Positions 1,882-24,000 of a DNA stretch of 24,000 nt are shown one piece after another; the first letter of the stretch is position 1; each line of letters opens with the position of its first letter. The notes under the pieces were generated by a model. That model was not told where the DNA came from, searched no databases, and was given only the letters and a program-made list of their open reading frames with translations. The DNA lies in assembly GCF_014490785.1 (NCBI RefSeq), contig NZ_CP051489.1, positions 1,859-25,858 on the forward strand, read 5' to 3'. Made by a program: the position numbers and the translations under genes. This stretch comes from Kosakonia sp. SMBL-WEM22 (lineage in GTDB: Bacteria > Pseudomonadota > Gammaproteobacteria > Enterobacterales > Enterobacteriaceae).

Positions 1882-2670
1882 TCAGCCCCTGTTAATGCCC
1901 CTGAGTAAGGCGACAGCCTCTTCACCCGGCATTTCAAACCGGACGCGGTGGCGTGCGGCGACATCCAGGGCAAAGACTTTCGTATATACCTCCGTCGAGC
2001 TGACGGACTTGTGCCCCATAAGGGTCTGCAGGATCTTGAGGGGGATGCCGGCATACAGCATGTGCATGGCATAACTGTGCCGGAACGTGTGCGGGGTCAC
2101 CGGCACGGAAAAGGTCACACCGTCTGCCGCTGCGGCCTCAACCGCCTCATTCAGCCAGGTCCTGACTGTCCTGTCGGTGATCTCCCAGATACGTGCCTTT
2201 TCCATTCTGCCGGTGCGCTTATTTCTCCGCTCCAGCGGGATCTTCAGCGTGGCCACCATCATCTCCAGCTGGCTGACGTAGTGGCTGTCGGACAGGGGAA
2301 CAATCCTGTGACTCGTGCTGCCGGCCGGCGCACGGCCTGCCGTCCGGGCTGCCTTTTCCGTGCGCTGTTTCAGTGTGGCCAGCTGAACAAACGGGGAGGG
2401 GGACGTCAGGTTAAAATCAGCGCGCGTCAGGGCCAGCGCTTCGTTTATGCGGGCACCGGAATTCCACAATGTTGACAGCAACATCCTGCGGTGCAGATCC
2501 GGGACGTAATGAAGCAGGGCACTGACTTCCGGGGCCAGAAGGTACTTTGGCAGTTCCTCCTGAACAAGTGCCATCTGGCGCAGAGCCAGGGCTGCCGGAT
2601 AGTCTATTGGTACCGGGAGCTGGATTCTCTCTGTGGCAGGCAGGTGTCCGTAAGGGGATGGAAAACTCAT
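1882..2670 (-). CDS. Tyrosine site-specific recombinase (phage-integrase family), short form of 262 aa
   Basis: Catalytic signature is visible: GARINEALALTRADF (Arg I), HTFRHSYAMHML (H-x-x-R) and GHKSVSSTEVYTKV (His...Tyr nucleophile). Only about 55 aa precede the catalytic domain. Confidence 0.9.
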   Translation of the reverse strand: MSFPSPYGHLPATERIQLPVPIDYPAALALRQMALVQEELPKYLLAPEVSALLHYVPDLHRRMLLSTLWNSGARINEALALTRADFNLTSPSPFVQLATLKQRTEKAARTAGRAPAGSTSHRIVPLSDSHYVSQLEMMVATLKIPLERRNKRTGRMEKARIWEITDRTVRTWLNEAVEAAAADGVTFSVPVTPHTFRHSYAMHMLYAGIPLKILQTLMGHKSVSSTEVYTKVFALDVAARHRVRFEMPGEEAVALLRGINRG

Positions 2671-3143
2671 GATACCTCTGGTGTTTCGCCATTGTCTTCC
2701 GACAGCTTCTGCCGCTTAACCGGCGCAAGATACTGGTTTAATTCATCTAGCATAATCAGTACACGGCGACCCGTCTTACGGGGAAACATCCTCCGCATTT
2801 CAGGCGTGAGCTGCTTACGTTCCCATCCGTAAGGGAAAATAATGCTGTATCCTGGTTCTCGGTGCGCATCCCTGTGGTCTGGGCCTGCGACAATACGTGC
2901 AACTTCCTGATTCAGGCGTTCTCCGCGCCAGCCCCACGCCGCGAGTCGCTTGCGGATCCGGCCCACCGGAAAACGGTTATCGGAGTTGCGGGGGAACATG
3001 ATTTTCCCGTCCTCATCCCGTCTGACCACAAACATATCCAGCGACTGCTGAATCAGCACATTCCGCACCGGAAAATGGCTGCGCATTTCTTTCATCATGC
3101 TGTGCATTACTCTACTCTGTATTGTTACGACCAGCAGCTGCAC
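2667..3143 (-). CDS. Hypothetical 158-aa basic protein, translationally coupled to the recombinase
   Basis: Its stop overlaps the recombinase start by 4 nt (ATGA at 2667-2670). Arg/Lys-rich. No family recognised. Confidence 0.6.
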   Translation of the reverse strand: MQLLVVTIQSRVMHSMMKEMRSHFPVRNVLIQQSLDMFVVRRDEDGKIMFPRNSDNRFPVGRIRKRLAAWGWRGERLNQEVARIVAGPDHRDAHREPGYSIIFPYGWERKQLTPEMRRMFPRKTGRRVLIMLDELNQYLAPVKRQKLSEDNGETPEVS

Positions 3144-3196
3144 TGGTGCCTTAAATTCTGCCTTCTGTTATTTTCGTTCCAGACAAATCCCGCCGG

Positions 3197-3526
3197 TCAC
3201 GAGATCGCCGCCCATTCCCATAATGTCATGAAAACCTGCCGGGCCTTCTCCTGGGAGGGCAGTTCAATCATATCCCCCTGCCGCAAATCGAGCTCTTCAT
3301 CAACCGTTTCGTTGTCTCGCATATGCAACCGCCATCCCGTCTCCGGAGGCGCGTTCTGTATGGCCAGCACGCGTCCTTCCGGAGACAGCAGTTCGCGGAG
3401 GATGTAGCAGGTGCCAGTCCGGGTCAAATTCCGCAGGCACATCACGGGGTACTCCTGAACCAGCTGGTCATACACACATTCTGCAGTATGGAAGTAATTC
3501 CGGTCCGCCTTACAAAAAACACACAT
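3197..3526 (-). CDS. Hypothetical 109-aa protein
   Basis: Co-oriented ORF in the same minus-strand gene string. No motif recognised. Confidence 0.45.
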   Translation of the reverse strand: MCVFCKADRNYFHTAECVYDQLVQEYPVMCLRNLTRTGTCYILRELLSPEGRVLAIQNAPPETGWRLHMRDNETVDEELDLRQGDMIELPSQEKARQVFMTLWEWAAIS

Positions 3527-3582
3527 ACGCCTTCCTTATTGAAAAATCCCGCCTACCATTTTTCCTGCCTGCCCGAATTCAT

Positions 3583-3879
3583 TCAGACATAACCTGTCAG
3601 AAAGAAGCACCCTTTTGCTTGAGCGCTGTCATTCAGATCAACCCATCTCATGAGGACTTCAGCATTATTGCCTGACCTAACCCCTTGCCAGTCGACCATT
3701 GACCAGCCGTAACTTTCCGGAGTATGTATCTTTCTGGCAACGATATCTCCGCTTTCATCAAGTACGAGATATTCCCCAACAAAGACTTTTTCATCGTCGG
3801 TAGGACGTTTATTTGAAACGAGGGATATTGTTTTTTGACCATCAGCAATGAGGGTATCAATCATTTCCACATAATCCAT
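3583..3879 (-). CDS. Hypothetical 98-aa protein
   Basis: Co-oriented ORF and first gene of the minus-strand string. No motif recognised. Confidence 0.5.
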   Translation of the reverse strand: MDYVEMIDTLIADGQKTISLVSNKRPTDDEKVFVGEYLVLDESGDIVARKIHTPESYGWSMVDWQGVRSGNNAEVLMRWVDLNDSAQAKGCFFLTGYV

Positions 3880-4335
3880 TCGTTACCCCTTCTTATAGAA
3901 TAGCCACTCAGGGTAATGATAACGCGCAGCACAATCAGCGGAGCACAATCCTGCGACTGTCACTCGAATGATTTTCACCTTACGCAATCATTACCTAACT
4001 GATAATAAGCATAAATATAAACACACAGGTAAATTACCGGATGACCGTTCCGGTGTGATCCGGTTTTCTGCGTATTCACGAATATCCGGAAGTGTACCAC
4101 GGTCAGGGAACAAGCAAAGCGCCCTTTTATGGTGGTGGGCACCGGGGTCACGATCATGGCCTAAAACACAACATATGGAAGAAATAGCAGCTGATGATAT
4201 GGCACATGTTGTGTTTCCGGGCCGGCGGGCAGCGGGTGACGATCTGCAGATCCGGAACTCACAGAAACCGGATCTTTGATAAAAATGAAGGAAGTAATGA
4301 TAGGCTCGGCCATGAAGCCATAAACAGCTGGACAA

Positions 4336-4434
4336 CATACGAACCGTATCCATTTTTAATAACGGTAATAACCGCGCCATCCGTTTCCCCGCGATCTGGA
4401 TTTTGAGGGAGTGAGAAAACTGGAGATCGTCCGG
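4336..4434 (+). pseudogene. vapB: vapB (AbrB/SpoVT-type antitoxin) 5' remnant with lost start codon, a frameshift and a truncation
   Basis: By-hand alignment to the intact vapB at 12361-12457 gives about 9 substitutions and one 1-nt deletion over about 94 nt. ATG has become ATA (catacgaacc versus catgagaacc). Homology stops abruptly after gtccgg at 4434. Confidence 0.8.
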
Positions 4435-4787: not shown

Positions 4788-4903
4788 AATTATAAATTGA
4801 TATATTTTATTATTTGATATTGTTCAGCCTGGTAGTGGTAACCTCATGAGTAGATTGATATTAATTCAATGGATGGTTGCAGGGTAAAAAGAGAGGAATT
4901 GAA

Positions 4904-6217
4904 ATGAAGAATGAAATGCATCAAGAAACCATAATATCTGAAATTGGTTTCTGTTGTTCTGATTTTACAGTTGAATATGCACTGTTGGTCAAGGATAAAT
5001 GCTATGTTGCCTATTATGATGAAAATCATACTATAACGGTAGCAAGTCGTAATCCTGACGAGAAAACATGGAAGCTAAGCCATCCGGAAGGTGAATGGTT
5101 ACCAGAAAAAAAACGATTTATGCATCAAACTGAATATGATAGCCACAATTACCTCACACTGGCAATGGACAGTAAAGGACATATTCATCTCTCCGGAAAT
5201 ATGCATAAAGACAAACTGGTCTGGTTCCGCTCAACAAAACCTTATGATATTCATTCTCTTGTTCAGAGGAAAATGACTGGAATAAGGGAGGGGAGTTCCA
5301 CCTATCCGTTATTTTTCTATGGCAGAAATGGAGAGCTTTTTTTTCGTTATCGCGATGGAGAAAGCGGAAACGGTGATGATATCTACAACTGCTGGAACGA
5401 AGATGAAAATAAATGGTTCAGATTACAGGGCAATCCATTATTAAGTGGTGAAGAACTCAGAAATGCATATGCCCGTTTACCCGTCTTTGGTCCGGATAAT
5501 CAATGGCATATGATCTGGATGTGGAGGGATACACCACACTGCGAAACCTGCCATGATCTTTCCTATGCACGCAGTCCGGATCTGCTCAAATGGTATTCGC
5601 ACGATGGCTATCGTTTACCCGTGCCGATCACCTTGCAGAAGAGCGATATTGTTGATGGCAGTTCTGTAAAACACGGGCTGATTAATATGAGCCAGAATAT
5701 TGGTTTCAGTGCCAAAGGTAAGCCGTTAATTACCTGGCATCGTTATGATGAAAAAGGCTTTTCTCAGGCCTGGATTGCCAGACCGGAAGGGAATAAATGG
5801 CTGATAAAACAAATCAGTGACTGGGAATTCCGCTGGGAGTTTAGTGGGATGGGTTCCATTCCTCCGGATGTCATTATCTCTGCACCCTATTTAAAAGATA
5901 ATTATCTCAGTGTTGATTTCAGATTATCCACTGGCGAGAGTGGAAACTGGTTGCTGGATCAAGAAACATTGGATGTCATAAAGACTTTTTCAGGCCCTGT
6001 CTCACCTCTTCCTGAACATTTTTATAAACCTTGCGAAGGCCTTGATGCGGAGGCAAAAGTGCAGATCATACCTGAGCTGTATCAATCATCTCCATCTTAT
6101 TTTTTGCGCTGGGAAGCGTTACCTATTCGAAGGGATATCTCTTCAGGGAAAAATATACGGCCAAGTATGTTAACACTGATAACTACCAAATGTTTCACGG
6201 AAGAGAAAGGAGATTAA
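4904..6217 (+). CDS. Cytoplasmic BNR-4 / beta-propeller-like carbohydrate-active enzyme (putative glycoside hydrolase or lyase); function unassigned
   Basis: The track ORF starts at TTG 4877. ATG 4904 is preferred because GAGAGGA lies 6 nt upstream. No signal peptide. Segments such as HNYLTLAMDSKGHIHLSGNMH and WMWRDTPHCETCHDLSYARSPD resemble proteins I remember annotated as BNR-4 repeat proteins. Operon context is a sugar transporter plus a porin. Confidence 0.6.
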   Translation: MKNEMHQETIISEIGFCCSDFTVEYALLVKDKCYVAYYDENHTITVASRNPDEKTWKLSHPEGEWLPEKKRFMHQTEYDSHNYLTLAMDSKGHIHLSGNMHKDKLVWFRSTKPYDIHSLVQRKMTGIREGSSTYPLFFYGRNGELFFRYRDGESGNGDDIYNCWNEDENKWFRLQGNPLLSGEELRNAYARLPVFGPDNQWHMIWMWRDTPHCETCHDLSYARSPDLLKWYSHDGYRLPVPITLQKSDIVDGSSVKHGLINMSQNIGFSAKGKPLITWHRYDEKGFSQAWIARPEGNKWLIKQISDWEFRWEFSGMGSIPPDVIISAPYLKDNYLSVDFRLSTGESGNWLLDQETLDVIKTFSGPVSPLPEHFYKPCEGLDAEAKVQIIPELYQSSPSYFLRWEALPIRRDISSGKNIRPSMLTLITTKCFTEEKGD

Positions 6218-6218
6218 A

Positions 6219-7487
6219 ATGATTTCGTCAGCGTCAAAAAACGCTTACATGCGGATAAGCTTATGTTTGTTTCTTTTTTATTTTTCATGGTCAACAACGT
6301 GGTCATTTCTGGCTATCTGGCTTGGAGATAATGTCGGCTTTACCAGTACACAGATAGGCTACACGCTGTCTGTAAATGCGCTATTTGCGCTCGCAATAAA
6401 GCCGGCGTTTGGCTTCATCATGGATAAACTTGGATTAAAAAAATCTTTATTAACCTGCGTGGCTATTGCTTCGGTATTCGCAGCTCCATTTTTTATCTAT
6501 GTATATCAGTATCTGCTGATGACCAGCATGGTTTTGGGCATGCTCCTCGGAGGGTTGTATCTGGGTACAGCTTATCTTGCTGGTGTACTGGTTTTTGAAA
6601 CATACGCAGACCGATACAGCCGGGCATTCGGGTTTGAATTCGGACGGGTCAGAATGTGGGGATCTCTTGGCTGGGCAATAGCTTCTATTTTTGCCGGGCA
6701 GTTATTTAATATAAATCCTCACTTTAACTTTATCATCACTTCCTGTGGTGCAGTTGCTGTTTTACTCATTCTTTTTACCCTTAAAACACAGGGCGACGGC
6801 ATTGACTGGCAGGCAGTGAATGCATCAAGAAAAGATCCCGTAAACCGCAAAGATGTCCGGATGCTGTTCCGGCATGCCAGTTTCTGGGTTCTGATGCTGT
6901 TTTATGGGGGGATTATCTGGATGATGCAAAGCGCAGAACAACAATTTCCACGTTATTTTGTGACGTTCTTTGCCGACCATCAGACAGGTAATGCCGTCTT
7001 GGGGTATATGGGATTTGTGCAGTCAGCATGTGAATTTTTGCTGATGTTCTCGATCCCTTTTCTGGTAAACCGGATAGGAGCCCGCAACGGTCTTCTTCTT
7101 GCTGGATTCGTTATTGGGCTCCGTCTTGTGCTGTCTGCCCTCGCAACTCATCCCTGGATGATTATTGTCATTAAACCGCTTTATGGTCTGGAAATGGCAC
7201 TGTTACTGGTTTCAATTTTTAAATTTCTCGCCGAGCATTTCGATAAGCGTCTGACCGGAACCATTTATATGGTACTCGGATGCTTTAATTACCTCGGAAT
7301 TACAGCAATAAATCCACTGGCTGGATATTTTTACGACAAGCATGGCTTCGCCTCCACATATATGGCTATGGGCTGCGCGGCGTGGTTAGTTACGCTTGCA
7401 GGGGTGAAGTTTTTAGGAAAACAAAAATCTTTATCGACGGAGAAATCAATGCACAATGCGACACAAGACGTTAACGCAATGAAATAA
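6219..7487 (+). CDS. LacY-family (oligosaccharide:H+ symporter) MFS transporter
   Basis: The N-terminus (FLFYFSWSTTWSFLAIWL...KPAFGFIMDKLGLKKSLL) parallels LacY (FFFYFFIMGAYFPFFPIWL...QPLFGLLSDKLGLRKYLL). About 12 hydrophobic segments. AAAGGAG RBS, and the start lies 1 nt after the upstream stop. Confidence 0.88.
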   Translation: MISSASKNAYMRISLCLFLFYFSWSTTWSFLAIWLGDNVGFTSTQIGYTLSVNALFALAIKPAFGFIMDKLGLKKSLLTCVAIASVFAAPFFIYVYQYLLMTSMVLGMLLGGLYLGTAYLAGVLVFETYADRYSRAFGFEFGRVRMWGSLGWAIASIFAGQLFNINPHFNFIITSCGAVAVLLILFTLKTQGDGIDWQAVNASRKDPVNRKDVRMLFRHASFWVLMLFYGGIIWMMQSAEQQFPRYFVTFFADHQTGNAVLGYMGFVQSACEFLLMFSIPFLVNRIGARNGLLLAGFVIGLRLVLSALATHPWMIIVIKPLYGLEMALLLVSIFKFLAEHFDKRLTGTIYMVLGCFNYLGITAINPLAGYFYDKHGFASTYMAMGCAAWLVTLAGVKFLGKQKSLSTEKSMHNATQDVNAMK

Positions 7488-7564
7488 AAAATTATTTTTT
7501 AATATTAATGCCTTTCAACAGGACTGGCGTCACAACAAATTACGCTCAAATTTCAGGAGTAAAA

Positions 7565-8260
7565 ATGAAAGCAAACCTGCCTCTCCTTTTTATTATCAGT
7601 GCTATTCATCCCATTTCAGCCTTCGCGGCTGGTGCGTGGATTGAAGGTCGTGAAGCTTTTAACACCGCCTCAGAGCAGCATGAATTTGTTCTGCGGGGAG
7701 GATATAACTTTGATGGTGGTGCAGGCATTATGCTTACTAATGCCTACAATACCGGTAAACTGGATCAGTTTAAGCACAGCTATAATGAACTCGAAGGATG
7801 GTATCCGCTTTTTAAGCCTACCACGGAGCTCACTATTTCACCCGCGCTTATTCTCACAGACAACGCTGATGGTTCAACTGTATCGCCATATGTTGATTTT
7901 AACTATAAATTTATTCCTGATTTTAATGTCACGTTAAGATACCGATACAATAATAAAAACTACGACAGCGTGGATCTTAATGGTAATAAAAATAAAGACA
8001 GCACACATCAGTTTGTTATGTACTGGAACCTCAAAATTAATGAAGAATGGGCCTATACTTTTGAACCGGATTATTTTATTCATGTTAAAGATTTCCATAG
8101 TAAAAACGGGAAAGATCATAACTGGGAGCTTAATAACAAGCTGACTTATACCCTGACACCACGGTGGAAGCCCTACTTAGAGGCATCATGGCTTGATCGA
8201 TGGAATCAGTACGAACGTGAACAATATCGTTTCAGGGTTGGGATAAGATATTATTTTTAG
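7565..8260 (+). CDS. KdgM/NanC-family oligosaccharide-specific outer-membrane porin
   Basis: Start at MKANL with AGGAG upstream. Signal peptide ends ...ISAFA/AGAW. About 210 aa mature length. Alternating beta-strand pattern with a terminal aromatic (RVGIRYYF), typical of small KdgM-family barrels. Confidence 0.8.
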   Translation: MKANLPLLFIISAIHPISAFAAGAWIEGREAFNTASEQHEFVLRGGYNFDGGAGIMLTNAYNTGKLDQFKHSYNELEGWYPLFKPTTELTISPALILTDNADGSTVSPYVDFNYKFIPDFNVTLRYRYNNKNYDSVDLNGNKNKDSTHQFVMYWNLKINEEWAYTFEPDYFIHVKDFHSKNGKDHNWELNNKLTYTLTPRWKPYLEASWLDRWNQYEREQYRFRVGIRYYF

Positions 8261-8544
8261 GTAATTATTTGAGTCAGTAATGTATCCCGTCATAACGATG
8301 GGATACGCTATGCTTCATAGCAACATATTCAGAATGCACCGGCTATATCGTGAAGCAGATTGTTGCGGAGTTTCTGAGTGATCGCCACCGGAACTTACTT
8401 TTTTCGGATCTGAGTGCAGAAAAGTGAATGAAGGAAAAGTGAATTACTATTCAAGACATGATGTCATATTTATTTCGTGCGTGCTTTTTTATTCATGTTG
8501 ATGCATTATTTCTATAATCCAGCAGCATTAAGGAAAAAAGCATC

Positions 8545-9630
8545 ATGCTCAGCCAACTGACATTACGGTTTCCGAAAAAACTCATTGAGGGGCTCAAGTC
8601 CCGCGCGTCCGCCGAGGACACCTCGGTCAACGCCCTCACCGAACGCCTGCTCGACGGCGCGCTGAAGTCCGCCCCGCCGGACGATGCCTTTTTTGCCCTT
8701 CAGGCCGATCCGGGCGGCACGCGGGAGACGCTCTACCGGAAGGTGGTTCGCGGTGAAACCTTCGGCCGCCACTCCCTGAAGCCGGCCGAGCTGCGCTGGC
8801 TGTTTGTTCAGGCGCATGCGGCCTGTCAGACCGGCAGCGCGTTCATGAGCTGGTCCGCGATGGAGGCCCTGCTGGGCATCACCTTTGACGCTCTGATTTA
8901 CGCCTCGGAAAACGGCATTCCCGTCGATACTTACTACATCAACCGGGCCTTCGATCTCGCCGGCGTGGACTACCGGGCCGAAACAGACGCCTTTATGGCG
9001 GCCATGCCGCACGGGGTGGACGCCACCTGGGCGGAGTTCCTGCTGCGCCCGCTTTCCTCCGGTGCCCTGAACCTGAACGCCTTTCCGGATGAAGCGATCG
9101 GGCGCATCTGCACGCCGGCGCGCCTGAAGGCCGCTTTCCCGCTGGTCGTCCGGGCGCAGCGGTCAGACGGGGAAAGCCTGAAAGCCTGGGCCGCGGCCAC
9201 CGGGCTGGTCACGGACGATCTTATCCTGACGGCGGAGGTGGCCGACGTCACTCTGCGCGCCGAGATTCGCGGAAACCGGCTGCCACAGCTGCCCGGGCAG
9301 CCCTGGCAGGCGCCGCAGTTCAGCCTTTTCGTGATCGCCGGCCGGGTGTCGCTGGCGCTGGGCTGGGAAGTGTTCAGCGCGCTGGTCCGCTATATGCAGG
9401 CCCGCGCCTGGCAGGGGAGTACGGACAGGTGGAGCGCCCGCGACAGCCTGGTGTCCCTGTACCTGCCACACGCGGAGGGGGGCAGGGCGGTTCTCGGACT
9501 GGATGGCACCCATATCGCCATGACGACGGAGGAATACCTGCAGCTGGAAGAAGCGCTCCTCGACGCGGTGGCGGATGCTGGGGCGGCGCCGGTGCTGGAT
9601 GAGCTGCGCGCCCTGTACGGGGATCTCTGA
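8545..9630 (+). CDS. Ribbon-helix-helix (Arc/CopG-like) N-terminal domain protein with a roughly 310-aa uncharacterised C-terminal region
   Basis: N-terminus is LTLRFPKKLIEGLKSRASAEDTSVNALTERLLDGAL, a beta-strand plus two helices in the RHH pattern. The rest is Ala/Leu/Arg-rich with no motif I recognise. GC-rich coding sequence sits behind an AT-rich promoter region (TATAAT at 8513-8518). Confidence 0.75.
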   Translation: MLSQLTLRFPKKLIEGLKSRASAEDTSVNALTERLLDGALKSAPPDDAFFALQADPGGTRETLYRKVVRGETFGRHSLKPAELRWLFVQAHAACQTGSAFMSWSAMEALLGITFDALIYASENGIPVDTYYINRAFDLAGVDYRAETDAFMAAMPHGVDATWAEFLLRPLSSGALNLNAFPDEAIGRICTPARLKAAFPLVVRAQRSDGESLKAWAAATGLVTDDLILTAEVADVTLRAEIRGNRLPQLPGQPWQAPQFSLFVIAGRVSLALGWEVFSALVRYMQARAWQGSTDRWSARDSLVSLYLPHAEGGRAVLGLDGTHIAMTTEEYLQLEEALLDAVADAGAAPVLDELRALYGDL

Positions 9631-9631
9631 C

Positions 9632-11887
9632 GTGCGCGCGGGAGAGAGAAGGGCCGGGCAGGATGCGCCGATTTCTGCCGATGACGACGATCGCTACGGG
9701 TTCACGGCGGTGGCCGACGGCCTGGCGGAAAGCATTCATGCGCTGGAGGATGACGCCGGAACGGTGATCGGTATTGAGGGCCGCTGGGGCGCGGGTAAAA
9801 CCAGCCTGCTGAACCTGCTGCTCGCCCGCCTCAGAGCCGCGAGCCCGCCCGGCACGCACGTGATCCACTTTTCACCCTGGCTGAGCGGACCGGGTGGCAA
9901 CCTTGCCGAGGCGCTGCTGCTGCCGGTGGCCGGCATTCTTCAGCAGGTCGAGTCGCAACGTGAAGAGGCTGACAGACGCCTGAGAAAGCGCATCGCGCGG
10001 TGGTGGAAAAAGCAGGGGAAGAGCCGCAACGCCGGCGCCGCCCTGAAGGTGCTGAAGTACGTGCAGCAGACCTCCGGCCACCTGGCGCCGCTGGCGGATC
10101 TTGCCGGCAACGTCGTACCGGGGTTTGGGCTGGCGGCAAAGGGCATGGACGCGCTGGCGAAGCTCGACCTCAGCGCGCGTGGTAAAACGGCCGCCGAGCT
10201 GCGCGGCGAGATTGAATCGCGGCTTGATGCGCTCGGGCTAACGTTTGTCGTCGTGATTGACGATCTGGACCGGCTGGAGCCCTCGCAGGCGGTGGAGGTG
10301 CTGCGCCTGGTGCGCTCGGTGGCGGATTTCACGCGCTTCCGCTACGTCATGTGCTACGACCGCGACGTGCTGGCGCACGCCGTTCATCAGGGGCTGGGCG
10401 TGCAGGACGGCCAGCTGTACCTGCAGAAAATCGTGCCGATCTCCTTCAGCCTGCCCCGACCCGAGTCGTTCACGCTGCGCAGACACTTCCGTGACGAAGC
10501 CACACAGCTTTATCGCGAGGTGCACGGCGACGCGCCGGATGCTGAAACCCTGTCTGCGCTGGAGCGGGCAACGGATGTCTATGGAGAGGCGCTGGCTACG
10601 CCGCGCGAGGTCGGTCAGGCGCTCAGCGCCATTCGCTTCCGCTATGCCGGCATGAAGGACTACGTCTGGTTCCCTGATCTGTGCCTGCTGCAGCTTATCC
10701 GCGTCACCAATCCGGCGCTTCACGACTGGGCCGAGCGCTACCTCTCGGAGCGCGCCATCGAGATGTCGGGTGACGCCACACTTGCGGATGAGGAAAAGCA
10801 GGAAATCACTGTGGCCCTGGACCACGCGCTGGCGCAGTTTCCCACTCACGCCGCCCGGTCCGGGTGGGAGCTGGGGCGGTGGGTGCCCGGGGTGCAGGGG
10901 CGCAGGGAAAAGGGCGTCGCTGCGTTTCAGGATGAAGACAAACACTCAGCCCATGCGGCTACGGCACGCCGGCGCCTGGCCAGTCCGGTGTACTGGCGCT
11001 ACTACTTTGCCTTCTCGGCTCCCGGCAACGTGCTGTCTGAGGGCTACGTGCAGAATATCCTCCGCCTTGCCTCAGAGGACAAGGAGGCGCTGGCGAAGCA
11101 ACTGCTGGAAAGCGTCACCGACAACGGCGTGTCGTCCCGCACCTGGTTTGAGCACATCCTTACGCGGCTGACGCCCGCGGTGACGCTTGCCGCAGGCGCG
11201 CAGGCGCGCGCTGGGCTGCTGGCTTTCCTGTTCGTTCACGCGGATGAAGTCATGCTCTACTACTACCGGCAGCGCGGCCTCATGTACCGATATCAGTCGA
11301 TTGGGATTGAGGAACTGGCCACGCAGCTGATCGCACAGGCTCTGGACACCAGTCGTCCGGAAGCGCTAGCCATGCTGCAGGAGCTGCTCGAAGAAAGCGC
11401 CGGTTCGACGTGGGCCGCCATCTATTTTCGTGACGTGATGCGGCTGCACCGGGCGGCAGGTAACCGTCCGGGCATGGAAAGCGAAAAGTTCCTTTCCGCC
11501 GTTGAGCTGGAAAGGCTGCGTCAGGGAATGGCAGAAAAGATGTCGCCACCGGCGTTGGACCACGACGTGGATAAGCTGGACGAAACGGGCAGCTACCTCT
11601 GGGCGTGGCGGGACATTGCCGGCATGGAAACCGTGGACCGTTGGGTGGAAGAAGAGTGCAGCGAGGATGCAGCATTCCTGCTGTTTCTACTGTGTATGCG
11701 CTCTCCCGTAACCAGCAGCGACAGGGGGCGTTATTTCCGGCTCGATATCACTACCGCTGAGAAACTGACGGATCAGCCAGGCCTTTACAGGGCGAGGCTT
11801 GATGAGATTGTCGCAAAAAATGACCCTGCCCTTTCCGGCCTTCAGAACGACGTGCTGGAGGCTATCAGTAACGGCAGGGACTACTGA
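9632..11887 (+). CDS. KAP-family P-loop NTPase, soluble form with no obvious TM insert
   Basis: Walker A GRWGAGKTS at nt 9779-9805. Walker B VVVIDDLDR at nt 10247-10273. The N-terminal DDDDRYGFTAVADGLAESI lead-in is typical of KAP proteins. Start is either GTG 9632 (1 nt after the upstream TGA, with GGGGA upstream) or ATG 9575 (56-nt overlap). Confidence 0.85.
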   Translation: MRAGERRAGQDAPISADDDDRYGFTAVADGLAESIHALEDDAGTVIGIEGRWGAGKTSLLNLLLARLRAASPPGTHVIHFSPWLSGPGGNLAEALLLPVAGILQQVESQREEADRRLRKRIARWWKKQGKSRNAGAALKVLKYVQQTSGHLAPLADLAGNVVPGFGLAAKGMDALAKLDLSARGKTAAELRGEIESRLDALGLTFVVVIDDLDRLEPSQAVEVLRLVRSVADFTRFRYVMCYDRDVLAHAVHQGLGVQDGQLYLQKIVPISFSLPRPESFTLRRHFRDEATQLYREVHGDAPDAETLSALERATDVYGEALATPREVGQALSAIRFRYAGMKDYVWFPDLCLLQLIRVTNPALHDWAERYLSERAIEMSGDATLADEEKQEITVALDHALAQFPTHAARSGWELGRWVPGVQGRREKGVAAFQDEDKHSAHAATARRRLASPVYWRYYFAFSAPGNVLSEGYVQNILRLASEDKEALAKQLLESVTDNGVSSRTWFEHILTRLTPAVTLAAGAQARAGLLAFLFVHADEVMLYYYRQRGLMYRYQSIGIEELATQLIAQALDTSRPEALAMLQELLEESAGSTWAAIYFRDVMRLHRAAGNRPGMESEKFLSAVELERLRQGMAEKMSPPALDHDVDKLDETGSYLWAWRDIAGMETVDRWVEEECSEDAAFLLFLLCMRSPVTSSDRGRYFRLDITTAEKLTDQPGLYRARLDEIVAKNDPALSGLQNDVLEAISNGRDY

Positions 11888-12233
11888 ACCGACAACAGCA
11901 GCTAAGAGGCTTCCCCAAGCAGGTATTCTGGTACCAGAGCTGCGGGCAGCTACGTGCGCTGAGTGGCCGCGGTCATGGACACGATGCCCTGACGCGGCCC
12001 CCTCGCGCCACGGCGGCCTGGCGTAAATATTCGGCCAACTGACCGCGCCCTTCCGGATGCGTCACAGATCCGACGCGCTACTCTTCTGTGTTTCCCCTGC
12101 GCCCATGTTCAGACCCTATTTGCATCAGCAAAAAACATTTCCCATACGACCGCCATTTTCTCCGCTTGATGAAGATCCGCTTCTGCCAGAAATCGGATCT
12201 GAGTGGAAAAGAGAGAAACTAACATAGGCAGGA

Positions 12234-12308
12234 CATATCCATATGTCAGGCATCTGCATATGTTATGCATATACACTTGCAAAGCATCTGCTTATACTAA
12301 GCATATGC
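12234..12308. promoter_or_regulatory. Candidate vapBC promoter/operator array
   Basis: Palindromes CATATccATATG (12234-12245), TATGCATA (12264-12271) and GCATATGC (12301-12308). Direct repeat GCATCTGC at 12250-12257 and 12284-12291. -10-like TATACT at 12293-12298. All lie within 130 bp of the vapB ATG. Confidence 0.45.
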
Positions 12309-12360
12309 GCACACCCGACGCATACTACCGTCCGGAAAGGTCCGGACTCAGGGAGAACTC

Positions 12361-12591
12361 ATGAGAACCGTATCCATTTTTAAAAACGGCAACAACCGCG
12401 CCATCCGCCTTCCCCGCGATCTAGATTTTGAGGGGGTGAGCGAACTGGAAATCGTCCGGGAAGGGGACAGCATCATCCTCCGTCCCGTCCGGCCGACCTG
12501 GAGTTCATTCCTGGAGCTCGAAAAAGCCGATCCGGATTTTATGGCTGAGCGCGAGGACGTTGTCAGCGACGAAGGACGATTTGACCTGTGA
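12361..12591 (+). CDS. vapB: VapB antitoxin (AbrB/SpoVT/MazE-type swapped-hairpin domain)
   Basis: MRTVSIFKNGNNRAIRLPRDLDFEG... matches the classic VapB/MvpA N-terminus. 76 aa. Overlaps vapC by 4 nt. Confidence 0.9.
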   Translation: MRTVSIFKNGNNRAIRLPRDLDFEGVSELEIVREGDSIILRPVRPTWSSFLELEKADPDFMAEREDVVSDEGRFDL

Positions 12592-13004
12592 ACAAAACGT
12601 ATATGCTGGATACTAATATCTGCTCATTCATCATGCGTGAGCAGCCGGAAGCGGTGCTGAAGCGCCTTGAGCAGACAGTGCTGCGCGGTCACCGCATTGT
12701 GGTCTCGGCCATCACTTACTCCGAGATGCGCTTCGGTGCAAACGGCCCGAAGGCCTCTCCCCGCCACGTGGCGCTGGTTGACGCATTCTGCTCCCGCCTT
12801 GATGCTGTGCTGCCCTGGGACCGCGCCGCTGTGGACGCCACCACGGAAATCCGGGTTGCGCTGCGCCTCGCCGGCACGCCAATTGGCCCGAACGACACGG
12901 CGATTGCCGGGCACGCCATCGCGGCCGGTGCAGTGCTGGTGACGAATAATATGAGGGAGTTTGAGCGGGTGCCGGATCTGATCCTGGAAGACTGGGTTAA
13001 ATAG
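12588..13004 (+). CDS. vapC: VapC PIN-domain toxin (tRNA-fMet endonuclease type)
   Basis: GTG start overlaps the vapB stop. MLDTNICSF..., SAITYSEMRFGA, GTPIGPNDTAIAGHA and LVTNNMREFERVP..EDW are collinear with enterobacterial VapC/MvpT as I remember them. Confidence 0.92.
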   Translation: MNKTYMLDTNICSFIMREQPEAVLKRLEQTVLRGHRIVVSAITYSEMRFGANGPKASPRHVALVDAFCSRLDAVLPWDRAAVDATTEIRVALRLAGTPIGPNDTAIAGHAIAAGAVLVTNNMREFERVPDLILEDWVK

Positions 13005-14604
13005 ACTCAGTCAGATTTGAAGTAATAAAGGTCCGCTTTGTGCCAGATATAGTCATTCACACCCTGAGAGTTACACTTTTAAGTGATTCAGGGTACGCGC
13101 TTATTGGTTACGAATATTGTGCCAGAATCATGTGATTTGATGATTGCCGCTTTGCTTTCGAGCCAGTAAGTGCTCCACGTTCGCTAACGAATACTCAGGG
13201 CATGCAGAAAAACTGCTGACTATATTCTTTCGAAGAGCGTGGAATGCATACAAATCCCCGATAAAAGGAGTTGGTGATGACTGCGAAAGATCAGTTTGCT
13301 GCTCATGTTGGTCTGGACTGGGCGGATAAAAAACACGATGTCTGCGTTCAGTTTAAAAACGGTGATCGCATATTTCATGTGATTGAACATACGCCTGAGG
13401 CACTTGATATCTGGCTCAATGAGTTACACCAGAGGGTGAAAGGCAGGATTGCTATTGCCATTGAGCTGAAGAAAGGCCCGGTGGTTTATGCACTCCAGAA
13501 GTACCCATTTGTCACTGTTTTTCCAGTACACGCCTTGTCACTGGCCCGCTACCGACAGGCTTTCTGGCCCAGCGGTGCGAAGGATGATCCGCAGGACGTT
13601 GAGCTGGCATTAGACCTGATGCTACGTTATCCCCACAAGATAAAAGCCATTGAAGCCGACAATCCGGATATCCGATTACTCCAGCAATTAGTTGAGCAGC
13701 GCCGACTGCTGGTCGAAGACAAGCGTCGCTTTGTTAATCGGCTCATCAACACACTTAAGCAGTATTACCCCCAGCCCCTGGAATGGTTCTCTCATCGGGA
13801 CAGCTCTCTGTTCTGCGAGCTAATCATTCGCTGGCCGAGCCTGCAACGACTCAAACGGGCTCGCAGCGATACTGTCCGTCATTTTATGAACGCTAAAGGT
13901 GGTCCTGCTGTTGCATATACCGAACAGCGGGTTGCAAGTATTGCCAGCGCTATTCCCCTGACCACAGATAAAACTGTCATCGAGGCAAATGCATTGATGG
14001 CAACAGCACTTGCATCCCAAATCAAACTGACAGGCGACCTAATCAGAACCTACGACGAACGTATTGAATCCTTATTCGATACGCTTCCGGATGCAGAACT
14101 GTTCAAATCACTCCCTGGAATGGGACCGTGTATGGGCCCACGGATGCTTGCCGCACTGGGTGATAACCGCGACCGCTTCAATAGCGCAGAAGAAATTCAA
14201 AACTACGCTGGCATCGCACCAGTAACCGAGCGAAGTGGTCAAAAATCCTGGGTACACTGGCGTTGGCAGTGCGCAAAGTTCGTCCGACAGACATTCGTGG
14301 AATGGACTGCGAAGACGGTTAACTCATCGTACTGGGCCAGACTTTATTACCAGGGCCAGCGAGAAAAAGGGAAATCGCATCAATCAGCTATCCGGGCTCT
14401 GGCGTTTAAATGGATAAGGATCATTTACCGTTGTTGGAAGACCAAAACCCGGTACGACGAAGCGAAATACTTGCTGGCACTGGAAGCGCGAAAGTCCCCC
14501 TTACTGAAGCCATAAAAAGCTTGTCGAATGTCTCAGGGCGTGAAGCGGACATTTCATTAATCGCATTGCCTGAAGTTTAGTAAGATGCCAAAAGGAAATT
14601 CATC
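13005..14604 (+). mobile_element. Interval containing an IS110-family insertion sequence; exact ends unresolved
   Basis: A single DEDD transposase gene with about 270 nt of non-coding sequence 5' and about 90 nt 3'. No terminal inverted repeats, as expected for IS110. TCAGGG-containing motifs at about 13061-13094 and about 14531-14540 could mark the junctions. Confidence 0.6.
13277..14515 (+). CDS. IS110-family DEDD transposase/recombinase
   Basis: AAGGAG lies 6 nt before ATG 13277. N-terminal HVGLDWADKKHDV and AIAIELKKGP, then AKDDPQDVELALDL (the K-x-D-x-x-D-A-type motif). C-terminal LPGMGPCMGPRMLAALGDNRDRFNSAEEIQNYAGIAPVTERSGQ matches the Transposase_20 HhH region. Confidence 0.88.
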   Translation: MTAKDQFAAHVGLDWADKKHDVCVQFKNGDRIFHVIEHTPEALDIWLNELHQRVKGRIAIAIELKKGPVVYALQKYPFVTVFPVHALSLARYRQAFWPSGAKDDPQDVELALDLMLRYPHKIKAIEADNPDIRLLQQLVEQRRLLVEDKRRFVNRLINTLKQYYPQPLEWFSHRDSSLFCELIIRWPSLQRLKRARSDTVRHFMNAKGGPAVAYTEQRVASIASAIPLTTDKTVIEANALMATALASQIKLTGDLIRTYDERIESLFDTLPDAELFKSLPGMGPCMGPRMLAALGDNRDRFNSAEEIQNYAGIAPVTERSGQKSWVHWRWQCAKFVRQTFVEWTAKTVNSSYWARLYYQGQREKGKSHQSAIRALAFKWIRIIYRCWKTKTRYDEAKYLLALEARKSPLLKP

Positions 14605-15396
14605 ATGGAGTTAGCTACAGGTAAAAGTATGGAAGCTCTGATCAAAACGTATATAGAAATCCTTAAAAGTCTTAACGCTCAAGCGTTTGCACTCATGGAG
14701 GATAAGTATTCAGGAGTATTTCTTCCTGTTCCCTCTGAAGAGTACTGGCACTCCCCGGTAAAAATCATGCTGGTTGGGCGTGAAACGGCAGGATGGAATA
14801 CTGGAAATCATAAAAATAAAATTGCTCGGGTTCTGGGCCTGATGCCCAATATTACTGTCGAACATGTAGTTGAAGAAGCGGTAACTCGCTACAAAGAGCA
14901 TCAGGATAAGTGCACTCCTAATACGAAATCACGAAGCCGTTTTATGCAGTATTATTTCTTGCTGGCGCGAAAACTAGAATTACCCCCTAAAGCAATAGTG
15001 TATGCAAATTTATTTGCATGGGATTATGACCGAAAGAGCCCACTGCTCCGCTCTGAAAACGAACTTCAGGAAATAGCGTCTGTTTCATTAAGGCTTCTGG
15101 CGACCCAGATAGGGCATTTAAAACCTGATTTTGTAATATTTGCATGTGGTTCACTAACCGACCATTTTATAAAGTGTTTATCAAATAAATATTTGGGCGG
15201 TTCTAAGACTCTATCAGTCACTCCTAAAAAAATATGGAAGTTTGAGGCTGGGGATGCGACCTGCTTCAGGATTGCTCATCCCAGAGCAACCTATGGGCAT
15301 CAGGAGTTCAGGGCAGAGGTGATCGAACAGATTAAACAAGCGGCTGTACGCTTATCCTGTCATCGAAAGCAAAATTGCGAGTCTGAAGGAGCTTAG
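14605..15396 (+). CDS. Hypothetical 263-aa protein with weak uracil-DNA-glycosylase-superfamily-like motif order; unverified
   Basis: AGGA RBS upstream of an ATG start. AT-rich codon usage unlike both flanks. Motif order is KIMLVGRETAGWN ... VYANLFAWDY ... DFVIFACGS ... CFRIAHPRATYG. Confidence 0.65.
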   Translation: MELATGKSMEALIKTYIEILKSLNAQAFALMEDKYSGVFLPVPSEEYWHSPVKIMLVGRETAGWNTGNHKNKIARVLGLMPNITVEHVVEEAVTRYKEHQDKCTPNTKSRSRFMQYYFLLARKLELPPKAIVYANLFAWDYDRKSPLLRSENELQEIASVSLRLLATQIGHLKPDFVIFACGSLTDHFIKCLSNKYLGGSKTLSVTPKKIWKFEAGDATCFRIAHPRATYGHQEFRAEVIEQIKQAAVRLSCHRKQNCESEGA

Positions 15397-16679: not shown

Positions 16680-16943
16680 ATGAAGAAGCGTTTTTCCGAC
16701 GAACAGATCATCAGTATTCTCCGCGAGGCAGAAGCCGGGGTTTCAGCCCGGGAACTCTGCCGTAAGCATGCTATTTCAGACGCTACCTTTTACACCTGGC
16801 GCAAGAAGTTTGGTGGCATGGAAGTTCCCGAAGTGAAGCGGCTCAAGTCGCTTGAAGAGGAGAACGCCCGCCTCAAGAAGCTGCTCGCTGAAGCCATGCT
16901 GGATAAGGAGGCGCTTCAGGTAGCTCTTGGCCGAAAGTTCTGA
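16680..16943 (+). CDS. IS3-family transposase OrfA (HTH)
   Basis: [47 protein letters not shown]... followed by a leucine-zipper-like region, typical of IS407-group OrfA. Confidence 0.9.
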
Positions 16944-16966
16944 CGACAGACCAGAAGCGGGAAGCC

Positions 16967-17800
16967 GTGGAAGTCATGTGTGAGGCCGCAGGTCTGTCGC
17001 AACGTCGTGCCTGCAGGCTGGCAGGTTTGTCCCTGTCGACCTGCCGTTACTCGGCTCAGCGTTCGGCTGCTGACGCGCAGCTGTCTCTACGCATCACAGA
17101 GCTGGCACTTGAGCGCCGCCGCTTTGGTTACCGGCGCATCTGGCATCTACTGCGTCGGGAAGGCCTTCACGTCAACCACAAGCGGGTATACCGCATCTAT
17201 CATCTCAACGGCCTGAGTGTAAAACGCAGGCGACGCCGCAAGGGACTGGCGACTGAGCGGCTTCCGCTTCTTCGTCCGGATGCGCCGAACCTGACATGGT
17301 CGATGGATTTTGTCATGGATGCACTTGCCAGCGGCCGCAGGATGAAGTGCCTGACCTGCGTGGATGATTTCACGAAGGAGTGTCTGACGATCACCAGGGC
17401 ATTCGGGATCACAGGCGTTCAGGTGACACGTATTCTGGACAGCATTGCGTTGTTTCGTGGCTATCCTGCAACGATAAGAACCGATCAGGGCCCGGAGTTC
17501 ACCTGCCGCGCGCTCGATCAATGGGCCTTTGAACATGGTGTTGAGTTGCGCTTAATCCAGCCGGGCAAGCCAACGCAAAACGGATTTATTGAGAGTTTCA
17601 ATGGCCGCTTTCGGGATGAATGCCTGAATGAGCACTGGTTCAGCGATATTCTACATGCCCGGGCAATAATTAATGACTGGCGGCAGGATTATAACGAGTG
17701 TCGACCACATTCATCGCTGAATTACCTCACGCCGGCTGAATTTGCAGCGGGCTGGCGAAACGGGAAATTTGAAGAAAAACCAACTGACATTACTAACTGA
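16967..17800 (+). CDS. IS3-family transposase OrfB (DDE integrase core), expressed as an OrfAB fusion by -1 frameshift
   Basis: The -1 frame is open from 16922 (..[17 protein letters not shown]..), overlapping the end of orfA. DDE-region motifs are [15 protein letters not shown] and [13 protein letters not shown]. Confidence 0.9.
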
Positions 17801-18346
17801 AGGTTGTATCTAATCCTAGGGGCAGGTCACCCTTAAGCTAAATATTATCCTTTCATATAAAGCGCTTTCTCAGCGCGGCCAGTAAAAGAAAATCCTCTTT
17901 CTTTCATGAATATTTCAGTGCGTTATTAGAGACGTCCTCCATAAAAACAGCCTGCTGTTCTCCGGAATTTATGCCAGCTATCAATACTTGTTTGTACTGG
18001 AATCAGAATAATCTGTATATGCAGAATAATGGTGGTTTTCCGGGAAGTTTCTTATTGGTATATTTGCACCGCGCGCGCGTCGTTTGTATATGGCCTTTAT
18101 TGCCGCTTCGCTACCTGACATTTCCTGATAGGGCTTAACCTCTGCGGAGGCTTCGCCGGCGGTAGCCATATTATGAAATTTCAGCCCTGCAATATGAAAT
18201 TAACTAAAACTGCAATGAGTTTCTGCTGTGCGGCCGGAAGCGTGAAAGTATGCGTCATTTACTGCTGTGCTGTGATCTACGGGGCATAGCCAGATGGATG
18301 TCTCCGGCTCTGGTTTGCAGCGCATATACACATAGGGATGGAAGTT

Positions 18347-23700: not shown

Positions 23701-24000
23701 ACGAGTACGACGCGCTCGGCAACCTCAGCAGCACGCGTTTCCCGGACGGACGCGAGCTGGCGGCGCTGCGCTACGGCACCGGGCACCTGCTGGAGATGCA
23801 GCTGCGCCACGGCGGAGCGACGCACACGCTGGCGGCCTATGGCCGAGACCGCCTGCACCGGGAAATCTCCCGCAGCCAGGGCGTGCTCTCGCAGGAGACC
23901 CGTTACGACACCGCGGGGCGCATCACCCAGCGTACGGTGCTGGACGCCCGCCGGGAGCTGGTGTTCGAGCGCCGCTACCGCTGGGACCGCACCGACCAGA
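20706..24000 (+). CDS. rhs: Rhs-family T6SS effector, 5' part (prePAAR motif, TM helices, PAAR, YD-repeat shell); continues beyond the window
   Basis: GTG 20706 lies 7 nt after GGAAGGAG. prePAAR AARYQDPLIH at nt 20721-20750. Hydrophobic helices at about 20757-20900. PAAR-like region at about 21310-21490 (GHTVTGGSF...INGQPACRDGDRSTC). Many YD repeats follow (YEYDSAGLL, FEYDATGRL, YRHDALGQV, YEYDALGNL). No stop before 24000, so it is absent from the ORF track. Confidence 0.93.
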   Translation, partial: MSQPLAARYQDPLIHSSLLADVVSGVIEGAICLAAFTAGTAMMTTGLGTVAGVALIAVVFTSGVAEEAGDMVGQGVDAVLDFFGWRGPPDALITSGSHNVHIMDLPAARAAGTVDHDYLNTPIPEESFSDKAKAFAINTAVTILEVAQFTLHPVDNLAAGVNAIASSGWQGVKNFAGSVWDNLTQPVVAGASPFAKEAPLDTVECTKGHTVTGGSFLAEGSKKVLINGQPACRDGDRSTCEAKIKVKENTRVRIGGESIVVRDIRSGENFWARLIGNAIGSLGPGIIRNLSKGLLKTIFSRQILKAFCCQLAGDLGMGLATLGMIQAGKVGSEARHTQHPVDIASGAKILAGEEDRDFTLEDRIPLIWQRIYNSRNLATGMLGTGWLLPFETRFFRLEDNTFIWRDMSGRDLGFGELTPGDVVDYLEDGITLYYTVTGTLMLQMANGEYHVYEPDPTNPGEWRLFRIYDRHENCQHYAWDEHGKLVRISGDNESLDVELAYEKQHGRLASVHQVCAGERRLLVTYGYNEHGQLTDVTDADGIVTRRFGWDRASDMMGWHSYSTNLSVHYQWQPAADAPNWRVCSYQVLDDQDNVLERWRIDADEAKRCATVSCDAGFSTRHCWDFLYRITEFTDRNGGVWRYEWADYAELLKAATTPDGSRWEYGYDEHGNLTEVRDPLGNRTFTTWHPVFAFPLKEVLPDGGTWQYEYNARGDVVSLTDPKGGVTRFEWNEQGDLVKQTDALENTHRFWWNERGQLVRDEDCSGNQSHRLYDAAGRPLSAGDAEGNTDRWTLSAAGRLQTWRRADGRETHYEYDSAGLLCGQDDDGLRERKVTRNARGQVVSAADPAGHLTHLRYDRLGRLTTLINPNRESWRFEYDATGRLTGQRDYAGRLTEYRHDALGQVTEVIRHPLPGSQEAPLVTAFEYDVLGRLTARETADHRTEYRHDTLSLEIRRATRAEWRTALLEEREPQWDAVLVFTRNAAGELVSEENHGGTFEYEYDALGNLSSTRFPDGRELAALRYGTGHLLEMQLRHGGATHTLAAYGRDRLHREISRSQGVLSQETRYDTAGRITQRTVLDARRELVFERRYRWDRTDQ

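Follow-up and report, generated by a model that had tools for sequence, protein, structure and literature searches.

A probable diverged pif operon on a plasmid of F type in Kosakonia sp. SMBL-WEM22

The 24,000-nucleotide stretch of DNA analyzed here (Kosakonia sp. SMBL-WEM22, contig NZ_CP051489.1, positions 1,859 to 25,858; hereafter the window) carries a pair of genes that, judged from sequence, most probably represents a pif operon (pifC-pifA), diverged but intact, on a Kosakonia plasmid of F type, a reading to which we assign a probability of about 0.85. It is based on the naming of the second protein by PADLOC, on the identities of both proteins to those of the F plasmid, on the synteny with F and on the plasmid-like flanks of the pair. 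The locus is already named and long known, Pif being among the oldest known abortive-infection systems. A preliminary description of the same DNA had presented the pair as a candidate uncharacterized two-gene system, while in fact it is a Pif homologue that PADLOC names and that annotations of F-like plasmids already recognize; a PADLOC search was among the checks proposed there, with a named assignment listed as counting against novelty, and it returned PifA.

Identification of the pifC-pifA pair

The second protein matched the PADLOC model PDLC02361 (PifA) with an E value of 3.4e-265 over model positions 3-719 of 720, and scored 133 bits (cut-off 20; E 1.4e-38) against the Pfam family KAP_NTPase (PF07693), with both Walker A and Walker B motifs present, while PifC had no PADLOC match. 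In BLASTP comparisons, window PifA was 40% identical to F PifA over 706 amino acids (aa; E 2e-178), and window PifC was 36% identical to F PifC across all 362 aa (E 1e-65). On the F plasmid (NC_002483), pifC (44672-45760) is followed, after a 1-nt gap, by a 741-aa P-loop gene (42445-44670). Full-length pifC homologues were detected by tblastn in 1316 plasmid records, many of them annotated as "transcriptional repressor PifC", and pifA homologues in 1116 plasmid records, some annotated as "phage T7 exclusion protein". Many PifA homologues (P0121, P0143-P0150) are named "pilA-like protein" at NCBI, which looks like a propagated misspelling of pifA, and the PifC homologues of the window clade are annotated only as "hypothetical protein".

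The plasmid location was seen both in the protein and in the flanks. A 751-aa protein 100% identical to window PifA is carried by a 157-kb plasmid of Kosakonia sp. SMBL-WEM22, and MOBF/MPF_F plasmids of Kosakonia cowanii match the window flanks (1-2622 and 12184-13005) at 86-95% identity. When the locus was searched by megablast, the E. coli complete genomes gave no match and the plasmids gave a match to Pantoea pifC only, so that wider homology was visible at the protein level only; the homology to the Pantoea pif locus starts at 8398 and ends some 20 bp short of the stop codon of pifC.

The window agrees with F pif in gene content and gene order, in the stop-1 nt-start junction, in protein lengths that are nearly equal (361/751 aa vs. 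362/741 aa in F), and in architecture, that is, an Arc-type ribbon-helix-helix (RHH) domain on PifC and a KAP P-loop PifA that lacks transmembrane (TM) helices and has the same Walker motifs. F pif likewise resides on an F-type conjugative plasmid with a ResD-like integrase adjoining, and vapBC lies nearby on some IncF plasmids. However, F pif carries Asn6 in PifC and ATGCTA-N3-TAGCAT at -45, in contrast to Thr6 and GACATnATGTC at -90 in the window; the GC content of pifA is 48% in F vs. 64% in the window; the window pifA has a GTG start; and the convergent "nucleotide-binding protein" gene after F pifA is missing in the window.

The general idea of the preliminary description, a conflict module that pairs a DNA-binding regulator of RHH type with a KAP NTPase lacking TM helices, was thus right, but the features it took as distinctive, a soluble KAP protein and an RHH partner, are known ones of PifA and PifC. 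KAP stands for "Kidins220/ARMS and PifA", and F PifA is itself a TM-less anti-T7 protein (PMC13001434). A soluble KAP protein with an RHH partner is thus the archetype and no departure from known systems.

Gene structure and translational coupling

Features of the locus are listed in Table 1. Species-representative genomes were surveyed for pifC, which yielded 24 loci, all in Enterobacterales; loci are cited below by number (L). The open reading frame (ORF) of the second gene ends at 11887 and has two possible starts, ATG 9575 and GTG 9632. The pifC stop codon TGA (9628-9630) is followed after 1 nt by the GTG (junction ...tacGGGGAtctcTGAcGTG). The start of pifA is assigned to GTG 9632, because TGAcGTG is common to the window and L009, an independent metagenome-assembled genome (MAG), because the PADLOC PifA model aligns to the window protein from residue 6, and because two independent gene calls, those of NCBI and Logan, both give 751 aa. 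A junction of stop, 0-2 nt and start is near-universal across the pifC-pifA family, and in F and most loci it takes the form tacGGRGAtctN-stop-(0-2 nt)-start, with GGAGA or GGGGA as the Shine-Dalgarno sequence. Walker A (GRWGAGKTS) corresponds to PifA residues 50-58 (9779-9805) and Walker B (VVVIDDLDR) to residues 206-214 (10247-10273).

At this level the preliminary description was accurate. Its two co-oriented, tightly coupled ORFs, with their coordinates, stop codon, GTG and GGGGA, are all borne out by the sequence; the alternative ATG 9575 that it mentioned is present, the evidence picking GTG 9632; and its KAP signature was correctly placed, the Pfam KAP_NTPase match lying above the cut-off. 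The pair, which had been noted as far more GC-rich than the sugar locus on its left, is also richer in GC than the window at large, with 67% for pifC and 64% for pifA vs. 52% for the remainder of the window. Across replicons, pifC was GC-rich (63-67%) in all examined, F included, where pifA and its surroundings have 48%; the GC content of pifA is allele-dependent and ranges from 48 to 64%.

Table 1. Coordinates of features in the window
Feature	Position	Strand	Remarks
Inverted-repeat remnant of AGATCCG-N-CGGATCT	8390-8411	.	Probable backbone element, right arm and spacer; start of homology with other pif loci
Palindrome GACATgATGTC	8455-8465	.	90 bp 5′ of the pifC ATG; candidate PifC operator (pifO equivalent), "T6" type
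pifC homologue	8545-9630	+	361 aa; Arc-type RHH, residues 1-45 (nt 8545-8679), and a folded body of about 315 aa, family-restricted
Shine-Dalgarno GGGGA of pifA	9619-9623	+	Inside the invariant C-terminal YGDL codons of pifC
pifA homologue	9632-11887	+	751 aa; TM-less KAP P-loop NTPase with a long helical C-terminal region
vapBC	12361-13004
IS110	13271-14515
IS3-family element	16910-17027		IS1222-type frameshift signal
VgrG gene	18338-20275		Followed by small ORFs that may be type VI secretion system cargo

PifA is predicted to be a TM-less sensor NTPase

The hydropathy of PifA was scanned with 19-residue Kyte-Doolittle windows. No TM segment was found in PifA, the maximum being 1.61 in one Ala-rich window, while a LacY-like protein used as control had 36 windows at or above 1.6. 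The absence of clear TM helices, already remarked in the preliminary description, was therefore upheld. TM helices are typical of the KAP family, and their absence from window PifA agrees with the description of PifA in PMC13001434; since PifA itself is reported to be TM-less, the absence is compatible with membership in the PifA branch.

The AlphaFold2 (AF2) model of PifA (pLDDT 81) consists of a P-loop core and an all-helical C-terminal half; residues 122-183, inserted between the two Walker motifs, are helical but poorly ordered and of low confidence. Its best fold match, over the full length, was the ring ATPase RdrA of RADAR (E 3e-6), followed by ORC/Cdc6 and plant NLRs. By this predicted fold, PifA is a STAND/AAA+-like sensor NTPase without an enzymatic effector domain. 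Conservation peaks at residues 201-350 and is lowest at residues 101-150, 551-650 and 701-751. The window allele, with its identity of about 40% to F PifA, probably has another trigger specificity than the F protein.

Several defense NTPases were compared with PifA. RdrA, ORC/Cdc6 and NRC2 resemble the PifA model in that a helical region of sensor-like character comes after the P-loop module, but with TM-scores of only about 0.3, and PifA belongs by sequence to the KAP family and not to RdrA; no RdrA match was obtained with PADLOC, and no RdrB deaminase gene neighbors the pair in the window. QatA, PDC-S20 and Tmn are, like PifA, P-loop NTPases of phage defense. QatA and PDC-S20 share a KAP-like N-terminal module with PifA (PADLOC E values of 2e-13 and 1e-15, within the N-terminal 250-360 residues only), but the NCBIfam QatA score was 40 bits vs. 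a cut-off of 600, and QatB, QatC and QatD were absent from the window. Tmn, of the YobI family, has two TM helices inside its P-loop domain (PMC13001434), in contrast to window PifA with none, and PADLOC gave no Tmn match for the window.

F PifA triggers membrane depolarization and nucleotide leakage (PMC13001434), and the sensitivity of T7-like phages to it depends on gp1.2, with the capsid protein gp10 contributing, and few phages fall within its narrow range (PMC8594841, PMC11990801).

PifC combines a predicted Arc-type RHH with a family-restricted body

All sub-threshold Pfam matches of PifC were of RHH type (DUF6364, HicB, Arc with 7.5e-5, CopG, RHH_5 and FitA), and its N-terminus matched "Arc-like repressor" in PHROGs (9e-5). 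When an N-terminal profile was compared with the PDB, the best match was Arc, in register, though with a weak E value of 0.25. In this register PifC Q4, N/T6 and R8 are equivalent to Arc Q9, N11 and R13, and PifC residues 4-34 align with Arc 9-39 (QxNLR[WF]P ... SVN). In the Arc-operator complex, Arc Gln9, Asn11 and Arg13 contact operator bases. Arc (phage P22, of the Arc/Mnt type) differs in being a 53-aa stand-alone repressor, while PifC is an RHH fused to a body of about 315 aa whose RHH matches fall below the curated thresholds. The AF2 model of PifC (pLDDT 86, pTM 0.80) is confident except for residues 1-45, which comprise an unstructured stretch (residues 1-9) and helices 11-24 and 28-41, the picture to be expected of an RHH modelled as a monomer. 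The Pfam, PHROGs and PDB profile matches and the AF2 helices thus agree with the Arc/CopG-type RHH N-terminus proposed in the preliminary description.

For the body (residues 50-361), an exhaustive search of 1.84 billion proteins found 43 cluster representatives as relatives and none outside the PifC family. Foldseek comparison of the PifC model with the PDB returned nothing significant, the best match being Whirly/PBF-2 (E 0.17), which serves as a lead only; residues 226-358 are predicted to have a weakly Whirly-like beta4-alpha-beta4-alpha-alpha layout. Sequence search of the PDB with full-length PifC and PifA gave no significant match to either. At the C-terminus, the PifC alignment shows no variation at G359 or D360.

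F PifC is the pif autorepressor. Regulation of the F operon falls to pifC, and the PifC proteins of F and R64 also inhibit IncP/IncW conjugation via the coupling protein (PMC5696584). Osa and FipA, like F PifC, target coupling proteins of rival plasmids (PMC5696584), although their sequences are unrelated to PifC. By analogy, the body of window PifC is probably a fertility-inhibition factor directed against coupling proteins of rival plasmids, and a role like that of Osa and FipA is plausible for it.

A candidate operator covaries with residue 6 of PifC

The palindrome GACATgATGTC 5′ of pifC is present as a single copy in the window. Loci encoding Thr6 carry GACAT-N-ATGTC at -90 to -133 in 14/15 cases, the window included, while those encoding Asn6 carry TGCTA-N3-TAGCA at about -45 in 10/11 cases, F included; GACAT-N-ATGTC occurs in 0/11 Asn6 loci. 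Each palindrome is found exactly once per locus of about 13 kb, always 5′ of pifC, and its pairing with residue 6 holds in all 24 informative loci without exception. The pairing cuts across PifC clades, as L009 and L010 encode window-like proteins with Asn6, while L018 and L021-23 have F-like RHH sequences yet Thr6. Because residue 6 is equivalent to Arc Asn11 and covaries with the palindrome across clades, it may set operator specificity, and the two palindromes are likely PifC operators. No relevant paper was found when the literature was searched for pifO.

At 8419-8444, flanked by the backbone repeat on one side and the candidate operator on the other, a perfect direct repeat, GAAAAGTGAAT, is present twice with 15-bp spacing; it is only partly conserved in the Pantoea locus. 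An Rfam scan of the locus found no RNA family.

pifA alleles are shuffled, and other cargo can follow pifC

Among the 24 species-level loci, pifA directly follows pifC in 16 (15 full-length genes and 1 fragment) and is absent behind pifC in the other 8, so that the partner is not the obligate one assumed in the preliminary description. The identities of PifC and PifA were discordant between loci, with a Spearman coefficient of 0.24 over 120 locus pairs. In detail, the window and L002 share 90% identity in PifC and 47% in PifA, while the window and L009 share 65% in PifC and 95% in PifA. These comparisons indicate that alleles of the two genes have been reassorted among loci. The pifC-pifA-vapBC block as a whole is 87% conserved in L009, and an identical pifC-pifA pair was found in a separate sequencing run.

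Three loci (L017:1267-4848, L029:6001-9589 and L032:2411-5992, the last being the E. coli IncF plasmid NZ_AP022479, where the cassette spans 83472-87053) have, in place of pifA, a gene for a 289-aa HEPN-like protein coupled to pifC, with a 1-nt gap and the same YGDL-stop-ATG junction. This protein matched the PADLOC candidate PDC-S64 (2e-17) and Pfam HEPN (0.0016), and its gene is followed by a convergent gene for an AAA_15/21 ATPase of about 520 aa (PADLOC HEC-04, 4e-31). Plasmid records with the HEPN-like gene numbered 266, of which 262 had it at near full length; most were conjugative plasmids of E. coli and Salmonella. The HEPN-like/ATPase cassette with pifC at its head is thereby put on at least 262 plasmids. 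Further, in Mixta tenebrionis (L027:7159-8792) the place of pifA behind pifC is taken by an immunity gene of the colicin E1 type and a convergent gene for a pore-forming colicin.

Tentatively, and at slightly less than even odds in our estimate, pifC may be the portable regulatory head of a cassette-exchange slot on F-type plasmids, bringing its own operator with a one-residue switch and a built-in Shine-Dalgarno sequence to strongly diverged pifA alleles or to the unrelated HEPN-like/AAA-ATPase pair, which recombination would swap. It is part of this joint claim that Asn6 would read TGCTA-N3-TAGCA and Thr6 GACAT-N-ATGTC.

Module boundaries and the mosaic plasmid context

An inverted repeat, AGATCCG-N-CGGATCT, lies 160-190 bp 5′ of pifC in 19/26 pifC loci, with both arms present and a fixed 20-bp offset. 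The F version (L003 5923-5950), AGATCCGTAAC-TTGGGG-TTTTCGGATCT, has arms of 11 bp around a spacer of 6 bp. Two Kosakonia plasmids without pifC, L004 (5584-5611) and L006, carry this repeat as well, immediately behind the ResD-like integrase block. The window keeps the right arm only (CGGATCT; 8401-8411). This repeat was first taken as pifO, a candidacy that was rejected because it also occurs beside the integrase block of pifC-less plasmids. It is probably a backbone element of the ResD-like integrase/resolution module, which pifC adjoins in 15/24 loci. Arms and spacer are arranged as in the core site of a recombinase, and the repeat is possibly such a site. It could correspond to rfsF of F.

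The sugar-utilization locus (4877-8260) separates the repeat remnant from the integrase (1882-2670), and a copy of about 95 bp of the vapB 5′ end at 4341-4434 duplicates 12365-12458. The region is evidently a recombinational mosaic, because one repeat arm is lost, the sugar locus intervenes and the vapB fragment is duplicated. The segment comprising the sugar locus and pifCA is bracketed by the direct vapB repeats, and the arrangement suggests that this segment was acquired by homologous recombination between two plasmids.

Window positions 1882-4434 and 12184-13005 were compared with L004, L005 and L006. Kosakonia cowanii plasmids have a variable cargo slot between the ResD-like integrase block and vapBC, which is empty in L006 and holds DUF3800 and a HEPN nuclease in L004, DUF4238, an NTPase and korC in L005, and the sugar locus with pifCA in the window. 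The neighborhood given in the preliminary description, vapBC, two insertion-sequence elements and type VI secretion cargo, was recovered as vapBC, IS110, IS3 and VgrG, and its view of a variable, defense-rich region holds, the region being here that of a plasmid. A DUF6386 protein adjoins the integrase (ORF 1362-1805, + strand). No Pfam or PADLOC match was obtained for the ORFs 14605-15396 (+) and 22557-23858 (-), of 263 aa and 432-433 aa.

Discussion

Some findings weigh against the pif reading. Identity to the characterized F proteins is just 36-40%, so that trigger, defense strength and fertility inhibition may differ; a sigma-70 consensus scan 5′ of pifC found no promoter on the + strand (a perfect TATAAT at 8513-8518 was seen by eye, without a good -35, and no promoter is claimed); the phage range of F PifA is very narrow (PMC8594841); and some authors doubt that defense is its primary role (PMC8594841, PMC13552941). 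The pair might accordingly be seen as a device of plasmid competition or maintenance, in which PifC was selected for fertility inhibition, possibly with a role in replication or resolution, and phage exclusion is incidental. We consider this unlikely, at something like one chance in a few, although F PifC blocks both IncP and IncW transfer via the coupling protein (PMC5696584), pifC often adjoins the integrase/resolution module and persists without pifA, and the phage range of F PifA is poor (PMC8594841, PMC13552941). Against it, the fold and family of PifA are those of immune NTPases (RdrA, NLR, QatA and PDC-S20), PifA alleles diverge far faster than PifC, as is typical of arms-race sensors, and the alternative cargo behind pifC is likewise defense-like (HEPN and ATPase). 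Besides, roles in phage defense and in plasmid competition are not mutually exclusive.

A toxin-antitoxin-like pair, in which PifC would be an RHH antitoxin that neutralizes a toxic KAP NTPase by direct binding and represses the operon, is very improbable. The RHH N-terminus and the tight translational coupling would suit such a pair, and one study had difficulty in obtaining ectopic pifA constructs, a hint of toxicity or of a need for native regulation (PMC8594841). However, at 361 aa, and with a large body whose fold is predicted with confidence, PifC is unlike small labile antitoxins, and the antitoxin reading of the preliminary description is poorly supported given that body and the separately documented function of PifC in fertility inhibition (PMC5696584). 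Also, pifC lacks pifA in 8/24 loci and heads other cargo, and the free shuffling of pifC and pifA alleles (Spearman 0.24) argues against a co-evolving PifC-PifA interface, while the title of Schmitt et al. (1991), as cited in PMC13001434 and PMC13552941, gives pifA alone as the F gene whose expression confers exclusion. PifC and PifA thus lack both hallmarks of a type II toxin-antitoxin system, a small antitoxin and an obligate co-evolving partner. That the pair is instead an inactive relic, passively carried into the mosaic region and now neither expressed nor functional, has hardly any probability in our view. The missing left arm of the upstream repeat, the rearrangement of the region with its sugar locus and duplicated vapB fragment, and the failure of the sigma-70 scan to find a promoter fit a relic, but neither ORF is truncated, no invariant residue or Walker motif is damaged, the candidate operator palindrome, ribosome-binding site and coupling junction are kept, and the pair recurs, in the block conserved in the MAG L009 and identically in a separate sequencing run.

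Under the preferred reading as a pif operon, and starting from the observed homology, architecture, coupling geometry, synteny with F pif and plasmid context, the following mechanism can be proposed. PifC would dimerize via its Arc-type RHH, whose beta-strand residues Q4, T6 and R8 would read the palindrome GACATgATGTC, and binding to this candidate operator would autorepress a bicistronic pifCA transcript. Translation of pifA would be coupled to that of pifC via the Shine-Dalgarno sequence in the final pifC codons. The variable helical C-terminal region of PifA may sense a phage protein, as F PifA responds to T7 gp1.2 and capsid gp10, and nucleotide-dependent activation of PifA would then, by analogy with F PifA, lead to membrane depolarization or leakage and to abortive infection. 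Independently, the PifC body may block conjugation of rival plasmids through their coupling proteins, as F PifC does.

The analysis of this locus is mostly a correction, and what it adds is modest, namely the covariation of residue 6 with the palindromes, the shuffling of alleles and the other cargo seen behind pifC. In the literature covered, we found no description of the residue-6/palindrome covariation, the allele shuffling or the alternative HEPN-like/ATPase cassette. The covariation offers a directly testable operator assignment and a specificity code for PifC, and the pifC-headed HEPN-like/ATPase cassette, which hundreds of IncF plasmids carry, is a candidate defense cassette under putative PifC control. 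If pifC is indeed a portable regulatory head, the phage trigger of window PifA would differ from T7 gp1.2/gp10. The mechanism of PifA is poorly understood and its structure has not been solved, and natural alleles as diverged as that of the window could be of use in mapping the regions that recognize the trigger.

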